Notes: generated from the letters alone by a model not told the origin. Counted from the stretch's first letter, positions 2,050-53,867 are shown. The stretch: 64,000 nucleotides of DNA from Alphaproteobacteria bacterium (GCA_017618175.1 JAFZUT010000023.1:10996-74995), one strand, 5' to 3'. A program made the numbers and translations.

Positions 2050-2613
2050 ATGAGTAAAAAATTATTATTCGGGCTAATTGCATCTGTTTTATCAATCAAC
2101 GCATACGCAACATCATCCACCGTCACATCACGGGATTATGTTGATAATGTCGTTGCCACCAAACAGGCAAAAATTCCGGCGCAATCGGGCGACTATGTCG
2201 TAATGTATCCAAACAGTGAAAATGACGAAGACGACGGTGAAATCGGCATGCGTGCGATAATAACCGATGTTGGTGATTATGACGAAGGTACCGAATTGGT
2301 GACGGTTGGTGCGATAAATTCCGCCCTGCAAGATAGACAGAATCAAATTTCTGCGGGTACCAGTGGCAATTTGGTGACATATACCGGGACGGCGGGTTCG
2401 GTTGGTTCGGCATCGGTATATAACGGTTCAAATGCATACAGTGGTCAAACAACATCCCTGGTCCAGGCGCAACATGTTAACGCGGCGGCGGCGAATGCAT
2501 TTAATGCACATATAACGTGCAATACATACGCAACACCCAATGACCCAACCAGTGAATGCGTGTTGTGGAATGTAAATAACCTGTCGGGGACATATGTACC
2601 GCAAAACCAATAA
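2050..2613 (+). CDS. Secreted fibre-like protein, paralog A (signal peptide, TVTSRDYVD N-terminus, VTYxxxAG repeats, C-x11-C-VLW motif)
   Basis: ATG 2050 is preceded by AGAGGGG. 187 aa with an AYA/T signal-peptidase site. N- and C-terminal motifs are shared with 2752-3765 and 53358-53867. The ORF-track start at 1864 runs through the conserved non-coding element and is not used. Confidence 0.75.
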   Translation: MSKKLLFGLIASVLSINAYATSSTVTSRDYVDNVVATKQAKIPAQSGDYVVMYPNSENDEDDGEIGMRAIITDVGDYDEGTELVTVGAINSALQDRQNQISAGTSGNLVTYTGTAGSVGSASVYNGSNAYSGQTTSLVQAQHVNAAAANAFNAHITCNTYATPNDPTSECVLWNVNNLSGTYVPQNQ

Positions 2614-2751: not shown

Positions 2752-3765
2752 ATGAACAAGAGATTTTTATTTTGTATATTGGGAATGATTTTAACATTGC
2801 CGGCATATGCGGACCCGGTCACAGTGACCAGTCGTGATTACGTAGATACCACGGTTGGTGCCCGTCAAAACAAGATTGCGGCCGGTACGGGCGACCGTGT
2901 TGTGACATATTCGACAACGGCGGGCCAAATCGGTTCGCGTGCGATATTGGATGATTTAACCGGCACAACAACGACGGATACAAACCTGACCACCGCCGAG
3001 GTAGCCGAGAACGCAATATACAGTAAAAATCAAGAGGTGTTAAATATTGGTGCACCAAATGTTTTGACATACAGCGGTAATGCCGGCACATTGACATCGA
3101 CCCCGATATATGATTCAACGTTGAACACGTTTTCCAATGGGTTGGTTGATGCGGGAACGTTAAATACCGCAATGACAACGGCGGCGAACGATGAAATGAC
3201 ATGCGCCGAATATGCAACACCGGGTGATGCGACCACGGAATGTATATTATGGGAAATAAATACATCCGCCACGGCGCCATTGACCACAACGGCGTATTTA
3301 CCGGCAAATATCGCTGGAACATCGTATTGTTATAAATCGCATGACGCCAGGTATAATGGTCGTAATCAATGTTCTACGACAATGTATAATGCGTTTAACG
3401 CGGGCGAATGGGGCACGGTATTCCCGTATGGCGAGGTCAGTGGTATAAGTGTATGCAGTAATATCGAACCATCAATAAAATATGAATATGATTGGGGCAA
3501 TTCTTATCCATACCAGGTATCAACGAATCAAAGCGGTGTGCAATCACAATACGATGCGTGGGTCAGTGGCGGTCGCCCAACAACACCCGTTGGCGGGTAT
3601 TGTTATTGCAAACTGACCAATCCATCTGTTGCGGGTGCGCGTTGGGTGTTCCGGTACTCGCGCTCCGTTTCGGTCTGTGCGTCCTACTGTGCGATCAACT
3701 GCGCGTTCAACGTCCAGGCCTACGCCGACTTCCGTGGGGCCGTCTTCGGGGGTGTCGCGCAATGA
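2752..3765 (+). CDS. DGR target protein: secreted fibre-like protein (paralog B) with a C-terminal variable region
   Basis: 337 aa with signal peptide ...LPAYA/DP. TVTSRDYVD, VTYSxxAG repeats and a C-x11-C-ILW motif are shared with paralog A. An extra ~140-aa C-terminal domain has VR as its last 44 codons. Confidence 0.9.
   Translation: MNKRFLFCILGMILTLPAYADPVTVTSRDYVDTTVGARQNKIAAGTGDRVVTYSTTAGQIGSRAILDDLTGTTTTDTNLTTAEVAENAIYSKNQEVLNIGAPNVLTYSGNAGTLTSTPIYDSTLNTFSNGLVDAGTLNTAMTTAANDEMTCAEYATPGDATTECILWEINTSATAPLTTTAYLPANIAGTSYCYKSHDARYNGRNQCSTTMYNAFNAGEWGTVFPYGEVSGISVCSNIEPSIKYEYDWGNSYPYQVSTNQSGVQSQYDAWVSGGRPTTPVGGYCYCKLTNPSVAGARWVFRYSRSVSVCASYCAINCAFNVQAYADFRGAVFGGVAQ
3627..3758 (+). repeat. 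DGR variable repeat (VR)
   Basis: Matches TR at a constant offset of +326 with no indels. 117/132 positions are identical, and all 15 differences lie opposite TR adenines. Confidence 0.95.
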
Positions 3766-3792
3766 TGTTATCGCAGACCGTAAACCTTTTCC

Positions 3793-3830
3793 GCATATCA
3801 CGCACCGGAGAATCCGGTGACGTGATATGC
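3793..3830 (+). promoter_or_regulatory. Strong hairpin/cruciform ~35 bp downstream of VR (candidate DGR target-recognition structure)
   Basis: GCATATCACGCACCGGA-gaa-TCCGGTG(a)CGTGATATGC: 17-bp stem with one bulged A and a 3-nt loop. Flanked by the direct repeat CCGTAAACC (3778-3786 and 3830-3838). Confidence 0.6.
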
Positions 3831-3952
3831 CGTAAACCGTCACCGTGTGTGCGCGCGCAATGTGCGCGCATGCACGGTGTCATAAAAAATTCCCAATACG
3901 GGAATAGGCTGTATCGCCGTATCCAGTTGGTGGCCCTTTGGGTGGCCTGTTT

Positions 3953-4084
3953 TGTTGCGGGTGCGCGTTGGGTGTTCCAGAACTCGAACTCCGTTTCGAA
4001 CTGTGCGAACAACTGTGCGAACAACTGCGCGAACAACGTCCAGAACAACGCCGACTTCCGTGGGGCCGTCTTCGGGGGTGTCGC
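3953..4084 (+). repeat. DGR template repeat (TR), non-coding template for mutagenic retrohoming
   Basis: 25 adenines, comprising 11 AAC codons, 2 CAG and 1 GAC in the VR frame. 15 are substituted in VR. Contains three tandem 12-bp units TG(T/C)GCGAACAAC at 4002-4037. Confidence 0.95.
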
Positions 4085-4296
4085 TCCTTGGGATTGTGAA
4101 TACAGGGAAAACCTTTTGCCAACCTGCGGGACAGTGCCATGGCACTTTTATGCCTTTGGATAAACATCATCAAGGCGGGGGGGTATAGCCTGAGCCCCGG
4201 TTGTATGACCGGTGTGCCAAATACAAAACGTAGGGGATGTTTGGGCCAGTAGTTTGTTCTGTATCGTGACGAACGCCCGGAACATCCAATAAAAAA

Positions 4297-4629
4297 ATGA
4301 CTTTGGATGAAATAGAAAAATTTAGTAAGACCGAATGCCCGCGATTTTCGCAATTTGCCCGGGAACAGTTGCCTATGCCCGGTGTAAAAAAATACCTGAA
4401 TGATATCTTGAATCGCGAAATATTCGTCACAGATTTCAAAATTACAAAATCTAAACGCAAAGAGGGAACAGAATGTATGCAATTCCAATTTAAGTTGGAT
4501 AATCAGGTATGTGTCGCATTTACCGGCAGTGCCGTTTTGATGGACCAGATGCAATCTGCACGTGAAAATGACAAAATTCCCTTTGTGGGAACAATAGTCA
4601 AAATAGATAAATATTATTCTTTTTCTTGA
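4297..4629 (+). CDS. DGR accessory protein candidate, 110 aa, not recognisable as Avd
   Basis: ATG 4297. Stop lies 4 nt before the RT start, suggesting translational coupling. The sequence alternates hydrophobic and polar residues (strand-like, e.g. FVTDFKITKSKRKEGTECMQFQFKLDNQVCVAFTG), is near-neutral, and I recognise no four-helix-bundle Avd pattern. Confidence 0.6.
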   Translation: MTLDEIEKFSKTECPRFSQFAREQLPMPGVKKYLNDILNREIFVTDFKITKSKRKEGTECMQFQFKLDNQVCVAFTGSAVLMDQMQSARENDKIPFVGTIVKIDKYYSFS

Positions 4630-4633
4630 ATCA

Positions 4634-5635
4634 ATGAAAACATATAAAAATCTGTGGGATAAATTTATATCCGTTGAAAATTTCGAACTGGCCGCGCGTC
4701 GCGCCGTTAAAAGTAAAAAATCAAAAAAATCTGTGCAATATTTCTTGGAACACAAAGATGAACTGATTCAAAAACTGCGAACCAGTTTAATTAACGGAAC
4801 ATTCAAAACATCACAATATAAAATATTTACAATATATGAACCCAAAAAACGCGAAATATATAAATTGCCACTGTATCCCGACCATGTCCTGCATCATGCA
4901 TTGATAAATATCCTGGGGCCGATTTGGCAGAAAATGTTTATTCATGATTCATACGCATGTATCCCCGGGCGTGGATTACACGCCGCATCGCGCCGGACCA
5001 TGGATTTTGTGCGCAGAAATAAATATGTGTTGCAATGTGATATTCGTAAATTCTATCCAAGTATAAATCATAAAAAAATGATTGGGATTATCGCGCGTAA
5101 AATTCATGATAGGCGAATATTAAAAATACTGAAAGAAATCGTTTTTTCGGTCGGTGGCGAAACAAATTTGCCCATTGGAAATTTGACCAGTCAATGGTTG
5201 GGAAATGTGTACTTGAACGAACTGGATTATTTTGTAAAGCATATATTACATTGGCGTGACTATATACGGTATTGTGATGATTTTTGCCTGTATGGAAATA
5301 ACAAACATCAATTAAAATATATGTTAAGTAATGTAAAACGGTTTATAGAAATAAATTTGTTCATGTCTTTTTCACGAACAATTGTTCGTGAAACAAAAAA
5401 TGGAGTAGATTTTATTGGTTATCGACATTTTAGAAAATTTGTGTTGTTGCGGAAAAAATCGGCACTAAAAATAAAACGCAGAATATCAAATATAATCAAG
5501 TATCATGATTGGTCTGGACATTGTGTCGGGCAAATTGCCGCCGCATATGGATGGTTGAAATGGGCATGTACATACAACCTTAGAAATAAAATTTGTCAAG
5601 AAAAATGTGGACTTTTTGATTTAATGATAATATAA
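4634..5635 (+). CDS. DGR reverse transcriptase
   Basis: 333 aa with RT motifs: PLYPDHVLHHAL, LQCDIRKFYPSI, the DGR-typical IGNLTSQWLGNVYLNELD, catalytic YCDDF, and FIGYRHF. Confidence 0.92.
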   Translation: MKTYKNLWDKFISVENFELAARRAVKSKKSKKSVQYFLEHKDELIQKLRTSLINGTFKTSQYKIFTIYEPKKREIYKLPLYPDHVLHHALINILGPIWQKMFIHDSYACIPGRGLHAASRRTMDFVRRNKYVLQCDIRKFYPSINHKKMIGIIARKIHDRRILKILKEIVFSVGGETNLPIGNLTSQWLGNVYLNELDYFVKHILHWRDYIRYCDDFCLYGNNKHQLKYMLSNVKRFIEINLFMSFSRTIVRETKNGVDFIGYRHFRKFVLLRKKSALKIKRRISNIIKYHDWSGHCVGQIAAAYGWLKWACTYNLRNKICQEKCGLFDLMII

Positions 5636-5784
5636 TAGACACTATGAAACAGTTTTTGTTTATTTTCACAACATTCACAACTACAACCCCCGCGGGGGTA
5701 CGGTAATTTCTATTTGCGTTTTTTATGGCGCGCAGTATAATCAAACAGTTCAAAAAATAACAAAAGTAATTTAAGGGTTTTATT

Positions 5785-52017: not shown

Positions 52018-53136
52018 ATGGAATTTTCTGTGTTTCGTCAGGTTTTAATCCGGGCGTTGGGTCACATGCAGTCTATTGTTGAAAAACGTGCAACTTTACC
52101 GATTTTGATGAATGTTAAATTGGATGTGGGTGATGATTTGGTGTTGTCTGCAACCAATGTAGATTTAGAATTGGTCGAACATGTGGCCGCCGATGTGACG
52201 TTGGGTGGAAGAATCACTGTGCCGGTTCAAATGCTGTACGACATTGTTCGTAAATTGCCGGACGATGCGGAAATTTCTTTCAAACAATCGGGTGATGCCT
52301 TGGTCGTGACCAGTGGTCGTGCGGTGTTCCATTTGCCGACTTTACCGGCGGAAAATTTCCCGGCTATGGCGGGCAGCAACCTGACCACAAAATTCCAAAT
52401 GACGACCGGTGATTTGGCGCACCTTATCAATCAAACAAAGTTTGCAATTCCAACGGACGATGTGCGTTATCATTTGGGCGGAATTTATTTCCATATTTCT
52501 AATGATGATGGTAAAAATAAATTGACGGCGGTTGCAACGGATGCCCAGCGTATGGCACTGTGTGCGATGAACGCCCCGGCGGGCAGTGCGGATATGCCGG
52601 CGGTTATTTTGCCACGCCGCGTGATTGGCGAATTGTCAAAATTGTTAGAGGATGCAACCGTTGACGATGTCAATGTTGAATTGTCTGATACCAAGGCGCG
52701 TTTCACAATTGGTGCCGCCATTTTAACCAGTAAATTGGTCGATGCCCAATATCCAAACTATCGCGTTGTTATACCTAAGGGTAATGACAAGATTGCGATT
52801 ATGGACCGGAAACAATTCTTGAACGCGGTTGATTTGGTTTCGGTGGCCAGTATTGATAAAACCAAATCTGTTCAGTTGACTTTCTCGATGAATAAATTGG
52901 TTGTCAATGCATCCAGTCCAGATGCCGGCACCGCGACCCAGGAATTAGATATTGAATACAATGGCGATGCATCATTCAGTGTGACATTTAATGTAAAGTT
53001 CCTTATGGATGTTGCGGGCCAGGTCGAAGGTGAAAAATTCCAAATGGAAATGCAGGATCCGCTTTCGCCAACAATTATTAAATCCACCAACAAAGATACA
53101 GATGCGTTGTTCATTTTAATGCCAATGCGGATGTAG
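52018..53136 (+). CDS. dnaN: DNA polymerase III beta sliding clamp
   Basis: 372 aa, three-domain clamp pattern, C-terminal ...LFILMPMRM. Confidence 0.93.
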   Translation: MEFSVFRQVLIRALGHMQSIVEKRATLPILMNVKLDVGDDLVLSATNVDLELVEHVAADVTLGGRITVPVQMLYDIVRKLPDDAEISFKQSGDALVVTSGRAVFHLPTLPAENFPAMAGSNLTTKFQMTTGDLAHLINQTKFAIPTDDVRYHLGGIYFHISNDDGKNKLTAVATDAQRMALCAMNAPAGSADMPAVILPRRVIGELSKLLEDATVDDVNVELSDTKARFTIGAAILTSKLVDAQYPNYRVVIPKGNDKIAIMDRKQFLNAVDLVSVASIDKTKSVQLTFSMNKLVVNASSPDAGTATQELDIEYNGDASFSVTFNVKFLMDVAGQVEGEKFQMEMQDPLSPTIIKSTNKDTDALFILMPMRM

Positions 53137-53166
53137 GTGTTAGTGGTTAGTGGATAGTGATTAGTG

Positions 53167-53318
53167 AAAACCGGCGGGAATCCGCCGGTTTTTGTGTGCA
53201 AACTGGTCACAAAAAGGTACCTTTTTGTCCACCACTTTTTTTAGAAAATACGATTCAGTAAAATCAATGACTTACGAAATCTCGCGGGGTGGTCAAAAAA
53301 AGGTACCTTTTTGTTACA
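53167..53318. repeat. Conserved ~150-bp intergenic element, copy 2
   Basis: See copy 1. Terminator hairpin CCGGCGG-gaa-TCCGCCGG followed by a T-run. Palindromes at 53211-53226 (18 bp perfect including the flanking C/G) and 53297-53312. Confidence 0.85.
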
Positions 53319-53357
53319 CTATAAACATACCAAACAAGCATAACAAAGGAAGGGAAT

Positions 53358-53867
53358 ATGAGGATTTCAATTCTTAGCATCGGTACAATTGCATCGGTTT
53401 TAGCGTTCAACGCATACGCGGTATCATCCACCGTCACATCCCAGGATTACGTCGATGCAAGGGACGCGTTGAAACAAAATTTAATCGAAGCGACCGGCAA
53501 TATTTTTCCGGTCGGCAGTGTTGTCGAGACAACCGATGAAGATGGTGAGGTCATGCAACGCGGAATTTGCAATAGCATTGCAGATACATTTGGTGATTGT
53601 CGTAATGATTTCTTGGTGACACGGGATTTATTGGAAAGTGCGACAAATAATGTGGCGGATAATCTGCCGGAAACAACCGTCACATATAAAACGTGTTATC
53701 AGGAAGTAAATGGTGATTGCATACTTTGGAATTTAAGTGATAAAGATGTTTATGGGGCGGAACATTGTACATGGTCCAGTGATTGTAGTTCGGGGTGCCC
53801 CTATGGAGGAAACGGAGCTTGTAACAATGGGGTCTGTGATTATAGCGATGGGTGCATGATGTACTAA
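53358..53867 (+). CDS. Secreted Cys-rich fibre-family protein, paralog C
   Basis: AAGGAAGGGA RBS. Signal peptide ...FNAYA/VSSTVTSQDYVD. C-x8-C-ILWNL motif. Cys-rich tail CTWSSDCSSGCPYGGNGACNNGVCDYSDGC. Confidence 0.75.
   Translation: MRISILSIGTIASVLAFNAYAVSSTVTSQDYVDARDALKQNLIEATGNIFPVGSVVETTDEDGEVMQRGICNSIADTFGDCRNDFLVTRDLLESATNNVADNLPETTVTYKTCYQEVNGDCILWNLSDKDVYGAEHCTWSSDCSSGCPYGGNGACNNGVCDYSDGCMMY

Follow-up and report, generated by a model that had tools for sequence, protein, structure and literature searches.

The window that we analyzed, a 64-kb stretch of alphaproteobacterial DNA, carries a compact cassette at positions 2752 to 5635, with all features on the plus strand. It opens with a gene for a secreted variable protein of 337 aa (2752..3765), whose N-terminus resembles a signal peptide and for which we found 65 homologs. 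The 3' end of this open reading frame (ORF) holds the variable repeat (VR, 3627..3758), and downstream of it follow a template repeat (TR, 3953..4084), a structured non-coding RNA 3' of TR (4085..4296), an accessory gene encoding 110 aa (4297..4629), and the gene of a 333-aa DGR reverse transcriptase (RT, 4634..5635), with the accessory stop codon preceding the start codon of the RT by 4 nt. No natural system known diversifies proteins to a greater extent than diversity-generating retroelements (DGRs), and efforts to engineer them for directed evolution are under way; to our knowledge, all mechanistic understanding of them stems from the bRT-Avd-RNA particle of one phage.

Upon rerunning the alignment of the two repeats, we recovered the pattern on which the initial annotation had called a DGR. 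VR and TR match without gaps over 132 nt at an offset of 326, with 117 identical and 15 different positions, and the TR base is an A at 15/15 of these differences, for which the hypergeometric chance is 1.5e-13. As had been claimed, 15 of the 25 TR adenines are changed, 14 of them in 9 of the 11 AAC codons and one in a CAG codon; the TR sequence includes QNSNSVSNCANNCANNCANNVQNNAD, which in VR reads RYSRSVSVCASYCAINCAFNVQAYAD (target frame). The first base of VR is the third of a codon, which puts the first complete in-frame codon at 3628, and VR makes up about the last 44 codons of the ORF, with 11 AAC codons and no stop codon within reach. A similar restriction was obtained for 43 related loci, preselected for at least 80% A-mismatches, in which 584 of 1092 TR adenines (53.5%) differed in VR versus 36 of 4659 other bases (0.8%), and alignments of target homologs vary exactly at the AAC positions. 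VR ends in an A-free, G+C-rich stretch of 30 nt (3729..3758) that is the same as the TR 3' end (4055-4084), occurs as an exact match only at 3729 and 4055, and directly past which the two repeats diverge; this IMH-like end may function as an IMH. The DNA between the repeats (3759-3952) folds strongly (z = -6.5; 0/200 shuffles fold as well) into a first hairpin at 3793..3830 and a second, G+C-rich hairpin with a 17-bp stem at 3841..3879, both of which have equivalents in related loci. By analogy with the G+C-rich inverted repeat of BPP-1 known from the literature (Wu et al. 2018), the second hairpin is a candidate cruciform target-recognition element.

Mapping population reads to VR had been suggested as a test of the annotation, and we approximated this with public assemblies from different samples, such that the evidence for variation is at the level of assemblies. 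TR proved invariant, with 0/132 mismatches in all contigs from other samples, and VR occurred as three alleles, whose pairwise differences fell at TR-adenine positions in 18/18, 18/19, and 21/22 cases. The contigs carrying the other alleles encode an identical accessory protein, and their flanks differ at 0/1173 and 1/1240 nt; in allele 3, 1 of the 16 mismatches falls at a G. Relative to the closest species (L001), we could account for all 26 VR differences: 17 fall at TR-adenine positions, another 8 go along with the same substitution in TR, and the last one corresponds to an A in the TR of L001. The anatomy of the cassette, the restriction of TR/VR mismatches to adenines, the occurrence of one unchanging TR with several VR alleles, and the concerted change of TR and VR between strains are thus directly supported. 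Judged from these sequences, the DGR is active in nature and uses the adenines of its template to alter the tip of a secreted protein, and the cassette is very probably a functional chromosomal DGR of a Candidatus Enterousia-like gut/rumen alphaproteobacterium.

The RT is of the DGR type. Its IGNLTSQ motif starts at residue 181 and its YCDD box at residue 213, consistent with the initial annotation, and it conserves the equivalent of bRT R74. The former motif fits the [I/V/L]GxxxSQ signature that DGR RTs carry in place of the QGxxxSP of group II RTs (PMC7826257). Among solved structures, the RT is most closely related to the Bordetella phage bRT (8ub7_A, E 2.5e-43 over residues 2-318), with group II RTs at E 3e-19 and retron Ec86 at E 3e-4, and it matches phrog_1423 at E 8e-95. 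The notion that TR and VR arose by simple duplication of a segment and have drifted apart through point mutation or gene conversion, beside an unrelated retron or group II RT, could draw on sub-threshold NCBIfam matches (TIGR04416, group II, 113 bits versus a cutoff of 300; retron St85, 71 versus 235), but it is contradicted by the present data and retains next to no probability, given that every such match lies far under its cutoff, that the mismatches are A-only (p ~1e-13) with an invariant TR and a variable VR in natural populations, that the motif is IGxxxSQ and unlike QGxxxSP, and that Rfam searches of the cassette, run with the gathering threshold as well as with E <= 1, had no match at all and hence neither group II intron nor retron RNA.

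The cassette had been described as a resident chromosomal system between housekeeping genes, and its placement was confirmed: gltX and TrhA/hlyIII lie directly upstream and thrS directly downstream, followed by genes for an FtsN-like SPOR protein, TatA, DksA, thioredoxin, and SufS. The term resident needs qualifying, because the position next to thrS is shared only by the closest relative and because the RT and accessory resemble phage versions. The accessory-RT half, judged by eye in the annotation to be A+T-richer, is so by measurement (G+C of 37% for the accessory gene and 34% for the RT gene, versus 49% for the target gene and 43.5% for the window), and both genes fall below the G+C content of their flanks here and in 60/61 related loci. 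Together with the viral nature of the closest relatives of the RT and the accessory within GenBank phage records and IMG/VR, this could suit a cassette carried as cargo by a prophage or mobile element, in which case the target would be a phage or element protein. We regard such an origin as very improbable, as both immediate flanks are housekeeping genes, integrase, capsid, and tail genes are absent among the neighbors of the cassette, the target and VR-module family was found only in these alphaproteobacterial MAGs, the same module recurs in 69 species-level genomes, and a VR-less paralog of the target adjoins. A further candidate paralog, the ORF at 52018-53136, was tested and rejected.

The RNA that surrounds TR is conserved and shows covariation. 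Across the TR-upstream flanks of 34 loci, a 5' hairpin (AUUCCC-loop-GGGAAU, 3889..3905) shows stem covariation by eye, and next to it lies the 5' strand of a 12-bp duplex, GGCUGUAUCGCC (3907..3918), which pairs with 4179-4190 and thereby encloses TR. In the alignment of this duplex (A9), 94.4% of the cells were paired compared to 39-53% in slid controls, 9 of the 12 pairs had compensatory changes, and no shuffle matched the paired fraction or the covariation score. For the RNA 3' of TR (A4, 31 loci), we obtained 34 pairs, of which 22 show compensatory changes, and a paired fraction of 95.8% versus 30-46% in slid controls and with 0/500 shuffles doing as well. The helices comprise P1 (4123-4127 with 4230-4234), a short P2 hairpin (~4133-4148), a local hairpin (4152-4156 with 4172-4176), and a terminal hairpin domain P5/P6 (4235-4287). 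A P3 hairpin that is present in other loci is missing from the window and from L001, and a 2-bp local 'P4' proposed by RNAalifold was rejected and reread as belonging to the long-range duplex, of which it forms one strand. Only the comparative alignment revealed the structure; a single-sequence fold of the TR-accessory spacer was not significant (z = -0.64). Rfam held no match to the 3' RNA at E <= 1, and a promoter scan gave sites no more often than chance, none of them convincing upstream of TR. A model of the 3' hairpin domain (R1, 4218..4295, 87.7 bits) matched 23 times among the 80 viral loci, each time immediately 5' of the RT gene, while its covariance search of the BPP-1 TR-brt spacer yielded no match. 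The domain is shared with phage and archaeal-virus DGRs of the same accessory family and is common only to DGRs carrying that family; it was the only part of the RNA common to the viral loci, in which none of the 5' RNA sequence motifs occurred.

The accessory protein (pI 8.4) differs from the known DGR helper Avd. Its family is large (~786 clusters) and unannotated, with members of 97-110 aa, a pI of ~8.5, and no Pfam domain, and sequence searches of Pfam, NCBIfam, PHROGs, and PDB with it gave nothing informative. The AF2 model (pLDDT 91) has the topology b1-b2-b3-helix-b4-b5, rich in beta strands with one long helix, and is predicted to be OB-fold-like; the Foldseek matches included the OB domains of RuvBL DII, hSSB1, RPA70, and HIN, at weak scores (E 0.03-0.4, TM 0.3-0.45). 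A bAvd-like four-helix bundle was rejected for this protein, as the model is beta-rich and PF22296 (bAvd) gave no match, compared to 7e-36 for the bAvd control on the same model; hhalign against Avd returned a probability of 0.2%. The small ORF downstream of brt in BPP-1, Bbp4, was likewise rejected as a homolog (hhalign 0.1%). We found no other Avd-capable ORF in the cassette, and tblastn with bAvd against the 64-kb window and all loci, a weak test, gave nothing credible.

The family is tied to DGR RTs in the genomes that encode it. A DGR RT was adjacent or fused to it at 67/69 bacterial loci and at 78/80 viral loci, the latter found by a scan with a narrow accessory alignment and including the archaeal virus ANMV-1. 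This obligate genomic linkage is, like the RT type and the RNA covariation, directly supported. It is conceivable that the 110-aa ORF is a mere conserved neighbor or a generic nucleic-acid binder that is dispensable for homing, with the RT acting on its own or together with an Avd from another part of the genome. In line with this, 29% of the DGRs in the catalogue lack a recognised accessory gene (Wu et al. 2018), the assignment of the fold is weak, with a best Foldseek E of 0.03, and a role of the protein is suggested by genomic association and a predicted fold. We nevertheless hold a bystander to be unlikely, because the linkage spans Alphaproteobacteria, Bacteroidales, phages, and archaeal viruses, because the accessory occupies the Avd slot in 7 viral loci (VR-accessory-TR-RT) and is fused to the RT C-terminus in three independent representatives, which carry an IGNYxSQ motif, because so few nucleotides separate it from the RT gene here, and because the RNA domain that co-occurs with it went undetected in BPP-1. 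A search of the open-access literature found no factor that replaces Avd. Avd is present in ~74% of DGRs and is not strictly needed for membership. About one quarter of DGRs lack it and must have a different mode of action, and an Avd-independent mechanism was explicitly proposed for avd-less DGRs (Wu et al. 2018). With its tight link to DGR RTs across bacteria, phages, and archaeal viruses and with an RNA element of its own, the family would be a concrete, testable candidate for a replacement of Avd.

Among the known systems closest to the cassette is the BPP-1 DGR (mtd-avd-TR-brt; bRT-Avd-RNA). The RTs are homologous over their full length (E 2.5e-43), with IGxxxSQ, the R74 equivalent, and YxDD in common; VR lies at the target 3' end, TR differences are A-only at ~50-60% of adenines, the two repeats end in a common G+C-rich stretch, and VR is followed by inverted repeats, although the spacing of the IMH-like end and these hairpins differs. 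In both, a ~12-bp duplex of upstream and downstream RNA encloses TR, the one in BPP-1 being the avd:Sp cPRT Stop duplex described in the literature. Unlike BPP-1, the cassette has an OB-fold-like 110-aa protein instead of Avd, the gene order target-TR-RNA-accessory-RT, a 212-nt RNA 3' of TR whose terminal hairpin domain was undetected in the BPP-1 TR-brt spacer, a target with no detectable C-type lectin, and a chromosomal setting. Further close systems are those of ANMV-1 and the Methanosarcinales virus vir525, where an accessory homolog of 38-40% identity, annotated only as a hypothetical protein, lies immediately downstream of a DGR RT that is 33-45% identical to the one here, and where the R1 RNA motif sits just upstream of the RT (E 1e-3 in vir525; E 0.15 in ANMV-1). 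In contrast to the present cassette, these systems are viral, are ordered target-TR-RT-accessory, and have tail-fibre targets; the Avd candidates previously considered for ANMV-1 were ORFs of Avd-like size and pI between RT and target (Paul et al. 2015). With the Avd-less or minor-accessory DGRs (HRDC, MSL, CH1, PAG1-4; Wu et al. 2018), the cassette shares the lack of avd and a small conserved accessory ORF. Going by the descriptions of CH1, HRDC, and MSL (Wu et al. 2018), the small, basic accessory family without a Pfam domain is unlike CH1 (160-169 aa, acidic, pI 4.7) and unlike HRDC and MSL, which have recognisable domains.

The target protein begins with the sequence resembling a signal peptide and has two modules, an N-terminal one of ~170 aa and a C-terminal one of ~150 aa. 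The latter is rich in cysteines, with an invariant pattern of CxC and CxxxCxxxC, and has VR at its end. The VR module often occurs as a stand-alone protein of ~150 aa with a signal peptide, the domain itself being ~125 aa. All 65 homologs are annotated as hypothetical and have no Pfam domains, and sequence searches of Pfam, NCBIfam, PHROGs, and PDB with the target were uninformative. The AF2 model of the C-terminal domain (pLDDT > 90) predicts that a cysteine-rich helix with a CAxxCAxxCAxx repeat displays the variable residues. The domain might instead be a highly divergent C-type-lectin fold, the fold known from every DGR variable protein characterized structurally, with the predicted helix a modelling artefact. 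Annotated VR regions are systematically C-type lectins (Roux et al. 2021), and the model is a prediction from 38 sequences. In addition, VR is C-terminal and AAC-rich with an FR-containing motif at its end. Such an end motif is common in C-type-lectin DGR targets. Still, we consider a hidden lectin the less probable reading, at a level well short of dismissal. No Pfam family matched any of the 38 homologs, including the C-type-lectin families (FGE-sulfatase, DUF1566, and related; 0/38); a VR-domain profile had no match in the PDB, which holds solved structures of DGR variable proteins; hhalign of the VR domain against Mtd and ANMV-1 AdtA gave ~0.1% probability; and the invariant cysteine pattern is foreign to C-type lectins. 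Foldseek searches of PDB and BFVD with the target model returned only noise despite the high pLDDT of the VR domain (best E 0.47 for PDB and 0.015 for BFVD, TM < 0.15). All of these negative results are to be read with the caveat that remote similarity could fall below the sensitivities of the searches. The target resembles Mtd, TvpA, TaqVP, and AvpA in being a secreted or surface protein with a C-terminal VR, mutagenesis at AAC codons, and an invariant framework between the variable positions. It differs from them in that no sequence or structural similarity was detected, in the predicted placement of its variable residues on the CAxxCAxxCAxx helix, and in its often stand-alone module.

We propose a mechanism in four steps. 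A transcript of ~3889-4296 would carry TR within the structured RNA, where the 12-bp duplex, with one strand from the TR-upstream flank and one from the downstream domain, would loop TR off, followed by further helices and the terminal hairpin. The RT and the OB-fold-like accessory, the latter as a substitute for Avd, would then bind this RNA and copy TR into cDNA with misincorporation opposite adenines; binding of both RT and RNA by the accessory is suggested here by analogy with Avd. Subsequently, the cDNA would replace VR, guided by the common A-free, G+C-rich 3' end and probably also by the hairpins directly 3' of VR. Finally, up to 14 codons (11 AAC, 2 CAG, and 1 GAC) would be recoded in the C-terminal cysteine-rich domain of the secreted protein, which would allow for ~5.5e14 peptides with zero stop codons, the variable residues being predicted to sit on a helix. 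We also infer cis-priming, the roles of the hairpins, a disulfide-stapled helix, and a ligand-binding role of the target.

Beyond a routine DGR, the cassette has a non-Avd accessory, a conserved covarying RNA around TR, and a VR domain unmatched in Pfam and solved structures; its most unusual traits would be a previously undescribed small OB-fold-like helper that replaces Avd and a variable domain with no detectable C-type-lectin fold. We tentatively suggest, with slightly less than even confidence in the combined claim, that it represents a distinct, widespread, and Avd-independent class of DGRs, in which an OB-fold-like protein of ~100 aa, in some cases as a fusion with the RT, and a covarying hairpin domain in the 3' RNA take the place of the Avd barrel and its RNA-binding stem-loop, and that the Enterousia lineage has, in addition, a new variable scaffold, a small disulfide-rich domain with its variable residues on a cysteine-stapled helix. 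If true, the VR fold would be the first that is not a C-type lectin, and a compact ~125-aa domain would widen the range of scaffolds known to tolerate massive variation and could serve as a minimal display scaffold. For the organism itself, the finding would mean that an uncultured but common gut/rumen alphaproteobacterial lineage continuously diversifies a secreted protein.

We confirmed that the variable repeat (VR, 3627-3758) and the template repeat (TR, 3953-4084) of this diversity-generating retroelement (DGR), both on the forward strand, align without gaps at a constant offset of 326, with differences at template adenines only, as the initial annotation had claimed. The repeats are identical at 117 of 132 positions, and at all 15 mismatches the TR base is A, an outcome with a probability of ~1.5e-13 for 15 random mismatches; 15 of the 25 TR adenines are changed. 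Read in the frame of the 337-aa target open reading frame (ORF; 2752-3765), 9 of the 11 AAC codons hold 14 of the changes and a CAG codon holds the remaining one, again as originally described. The likeness stops sharply at both ends, and no second partner for the TR was found within the 64-kb window. The 25 adenines span a variant space of 4^25 (~1.1e15) DNA sequences and ~5.5e14 peptides, with no stop codon reachable by changing them. Other loci showed different layouts: one (L033) has two VRs (2791-2921 and 4168-4300) for one TR (5045-5177), with 13 and 18 mismatches, all at adenines, and the lineage therefore includes two-target DGRs, while six others (L011, L023, L031, L045, L047, L051) have a VR 3' of the reverse transcriptase (RT) gene or on the opposite strand.

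Judged from assembled sequences, the DGR is active in nature. The window derives from a metagenome-assembled genome (MAG) labelled Alphaproteobacteria bacterium, with relatives named Candidatus Enterousia, and public contigs from other samples encode an identical accessory protein and carry an identical TR (0 of 132 mismatches). Alongside this invariant TR, three different VR alleles occur: that of the window with 15 mismatches to the TR, a second with 14, all at A, and a third with 16 (15 at A and 1 at a G adjoining an A). Upon pairwise comparison, 18 of 18, 18 of 19, and 21 of 22 allele differences fell at TR-adenine positions, upholding the initial expectation for VR polymorphism, and the flanks outside the VR in two contigs of the same strain differed from the window at 0 of 1173 nt (L163) and 1 of 1240 nt (L162). 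Samples containing the strain include SRR12529217, SRR12710963, and the runs underlying ERZ27256899, ERZ27297857, and ERZ27298411. All 26 VR differences from the closest species-level relative (L001) were accounted for, 17 lying at TR-adenine positions, 8 showing the same substitution in the TR, and 1 coinciding with an A in the L001 TR; the eight mirrored differences are, on this alignment evidence, a concerted TR-to-VR transfer. Across 43 related loci, chosen beforehand for having an A-bias of 80% or more, the VR differed at 584 of 1092 TR adenines (53.5%) versus 36 of 4659 other bases, matching the ~50% mutation density reported for Bordetella and Bacteroides DGRs. The variable columns of the homolog alignment are exactly the AAC positions (RWVFxxSxSVSxCAxxCAxxCAxxVRxxADFRGAVFG). 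Several contigs of this strain (L159, L160, L162, L163) stop inside the target gene just 5' of the VR, near window positions 3280-3600, and L159 starts with an inverted 104-nt piece of that gene; the assemblies appear broken or mis-joined close to the hypervariable region, a hint of VR heterogeneity within samples.

The RT (4634-5635) is of the DGR type. Among solved structures, its best match was the RT of Bordetella phage BPP-1 (bRT; 8ub7_A, E 2.5e-43 over residues 2-318), compared with ~3e-19 for group II RTs and ~3e-4 for the retron Ec86, and it matched phrog_1423 at 8e-95, while the NCBIfam models for group II, retron, Drt, and Abi RTs matched far under their cutoffs. Both motifs of the original DGR-type assignment were found: IGNLTSQ fits the [I/V/L]GxxxSQ signature that stands in place of QGxxxSP, and the YCDD box is kept, as is the equivalent of bRT Arg74. 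The nearest RTs of GenBank phages are likewise DGR RTs, from a Methanosarcinales virus (45% identity), crAss-like phages (36-39%), and ANMV-1 (33%).

Ending 4 nt before the RT start codon, a forward-strand ORF (4297-4629) encodes a 110-aa accessory protein with a pI of 8.4; searches of Pfam, NCBIfam, and the PDB sequences gave no match to it. We rejected its identification as Avd, the BPP-1 accessory protein, given an hhalign probability of 0.2% for the family profile against Avd of BPP-1 (bAvd) and the missing Pfam match, with bAvd itself, as positive control, matching PF22296 at 7e-36. In the AF2 model (pLDDT 91), short helices at the N-terminus precede b1-b2-b3-helix-b4-b5, the element order of an OB fold, and Foldseek matches included the OB domains of RuvBL DII, hSSB1, RPA70, and HIN, but weakly (E 0.03-0.4, TM 0.3-0.45); we therefore call the predicted structure OB-fold-like, short of a proven OB fold. 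A profile search gathered 786 clusters at 50% identity, mostly of 95-110 aa and 288 of them at E <= 1e-10. A DGR-type RT lies beside the accessory gene in 67 of 69 GTDB species genomes (nearly all of them Enterousia-like, with one Bacteroidales and one Clostridia MAG besides) and in 78 of 80 IMG/VR loci. Of these 80 viral loci, 61 also have an A-biased TR/VR pair; 71 are arranged as VR-TR-RT-accessory, and in 7 the accessory gene occupies the Avd slot (VR-accessory-TR-RT). In three representatives (P0155, 507 aa; P0246, 414 aa; P0199, 324 aa), the C-terminus of a DGR-type RT with IGNYxSQ is fused to the accessory domain, Rosetta-stone evidence from sequence for a joint action of the two. A Bacteroidales chromosome (L068, OY781105.1) has a distant homolog in the order VR-TR-RT-accessory with 19 of 20 mismatches at A, and the Clostridia MAG (L069) has only the first 50 residues of a homolog, without an RT.

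Among GenBank phages, homologs of the accessory protein occur only in ANMV-1 (AJP62065.1, 4983-5279 of locus L150) and vir525 (DBA35194.1, 4992-5279 of L151), in both straight after the RT and annotated as hypothetical proteins; the original ANMV-1 paper had taken as Avd candidates the ORFs of Avd-like size and pI between RT and target. Wu et al. 2018 distinguished the accessory classes Avd, HRDC, MSL, CH1, and PAG1-4, and expressly left Avd-independent homing open. By size, charge, or domain, the protein fits neither Avd nor HRDC, MSL, or CH1, and we found no other classification of DGR accessories in the searchable literature.

The 212 nt from the TR to the accessory gene are conserved among loci in which the accessory proteins share only 50-70% identity. 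RNAalifold predicted 34 pairs with compensatory changes in 22, and 95.8% of cells were paired versus 30-46% with the partners slid, values matched by 0 of 500 shuffles. Alignment of the upstream flanks revealed a conserved hairpin 5' of the TR (3889-3905, forward strand) and, next to it, the 5' strand (3907-3918, GGCUGUAUCGCC) of a 12-bp helix with 4179-4190, which was 94.4% paired versus 39-53% in slid controls and had compensatory changes in 9 of 12 pairs. On this covariation, the helix closes the TR into a loop, as the avd:Sp 'cPRT Stop' duplex does in BPP-1; Handa et al. predicted that duplex in 207 of 278 DGRs with Avd as well. For the terminal hairpin domain, a covariance model (R1) scored 87.7 bits at 4218-4295 and found the hairpin in 23 accessory-bearing viral loci, always on the coding strand and directly 5' of the RT; it matched vir525 (E 1e-3), ANMV-1 weakly (E 0.15), and nothing in the BPP-1 TR-brt spacer, and no Rfam family matched the template RNA. 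We infer that the terminal hairpin may be the docking site for the accessory protein, a counterpart of the Avd-binding stem-loop of BPP-1. The P3 hairpin of other Enterousia-type template RNAs (CAGAUG...CAUCUG; columns 105-132 of a 31-locus alignment, A4, of the RNA 3' of the TR) is absent from the window (4150-4176) and L001, replaced by a shorter local hairpin (4152-4156/4172-4176); as both have diversified VRs, P3 appears dispensable. Beyond the RT stop codon lies a G+C hairpin (ACCCCCGCGGGGGT, 5689-5702) followed by a T-rich stretch, the probable terminator of the TR-accessory-RT transcript; a consensus scan made no call there.

The VR and TR have in common an A-free, G+C-rich 30-nt 3' end (3729-3758 and 4055-4084), after which they diverge at once, and two strong forward-strand hairpins (3793-3830 and 3841-3879, z = -6.5) follow the target stop codon. 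Most relatives have an equivalent pair, the second often of the form GGGGGCGGCG...CCCCGCCCCC. The shared end and the hairpins fit the IMH and G+C-rich inverted repeat described for BPP-1 and, by this analogy, are candidate target recognition elements.

The neighbours named in the initial annotation were confirmed: gltX and TrhA/hlyIII lie on one side of the cassette and thrS, an FtsN-like SPOR protein, TatA, DksA, thioredoxin, and SufS on the other, with no adjoining phage or integrase genes. Its impression of an A+T-rich accessory-RT half also agrees with the G+C content (accessory 37%, RT 34%, window 43.5%); in 60 out of 61 related loci, the flanking DNA is richer in G+C (median 43%) than the two genes (36% and 38%), while TR and VR are G+C-rich (60-65%). 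A foreign origin or selection acting on the mRNA may explain the low G+C. Synteny with thrS is common only to the closest relative, so the cassette moved, or genomes rearranged, within the lineage. We interpret it as a cellular DGR that has been domesticated and whose ancestry is ultimately phage-like; overall, the initial finding was correct and its interpretation is supported.

By its sequence, the target begins with what looks like a Sec signal peptide (MNKRFLFCILGMILTLPAYA, with the break before D), and residues 1-170 are 39% identical (E 1e-32) to the product of the gene immediately 5' (2050-2613, forward strand), a secreted 187-aa paralog without the VR domain; L002 and L003 have similar upstream paralogs. 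A stretch covering the hlyIII end, the intergenic region, and the paralog start (1858-2145) has an 82%-identical DNA copy ~51 kb off (53155-53456), which may mark a further gene-family member or a common promoter/leader; the ORF at 52018-53136 was rejected as the paralog. The conserved part of the target is its C-terminal module of ~150 aa, the profile of which gathered 230 clusters, mostly stand-alone ~150-aa proteins with a signal peptide; none has a Pfam domain, and all named members are from Alphaproteobacteria MAGs. AF2 was confident at residues ~185-333 (pLDDT mostly >90), where the VR is modelled as one strand (299-303) and two helices (306-323 and 325-331). Two cysteine motifs are invariant: a CxC that lies in a strand (C284, C286), and a CxxxCxxxC of the VR helix (C309, C313, C317) that has the variable residue pairs between its cysteines. 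In this model, disulfides would staple the helix to the sheet and present the variable residues on its exposed face, which recalls the cysteine-stabilised alpha/beta principle.

As a DGR, the cassette belongs to a known kind, and new here are a non-Avd accessory family, an associated RNA domain, and a VR scaffold without an assigned fold, the accessory role and the new fold being proposed from comparative genomics and structure prediction. That the VR domain is instead a very divergent C-type lectin seems unlikely, if still worth weighing: none of 38 homologs matched C-type-lectin-type Pfam families, hhalign gave ~0.1% against the BPP-1 variable protein Mtd and the ANMV-1 protein AdtA, the module profile had no match in the PDB, and Foldseek found no similar structure in PDB or BFVD. 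On the other side, Roux et al. 2021 found annotated VR regions to be systematically C-type lectin, so confirming another VR fold would be of interest.
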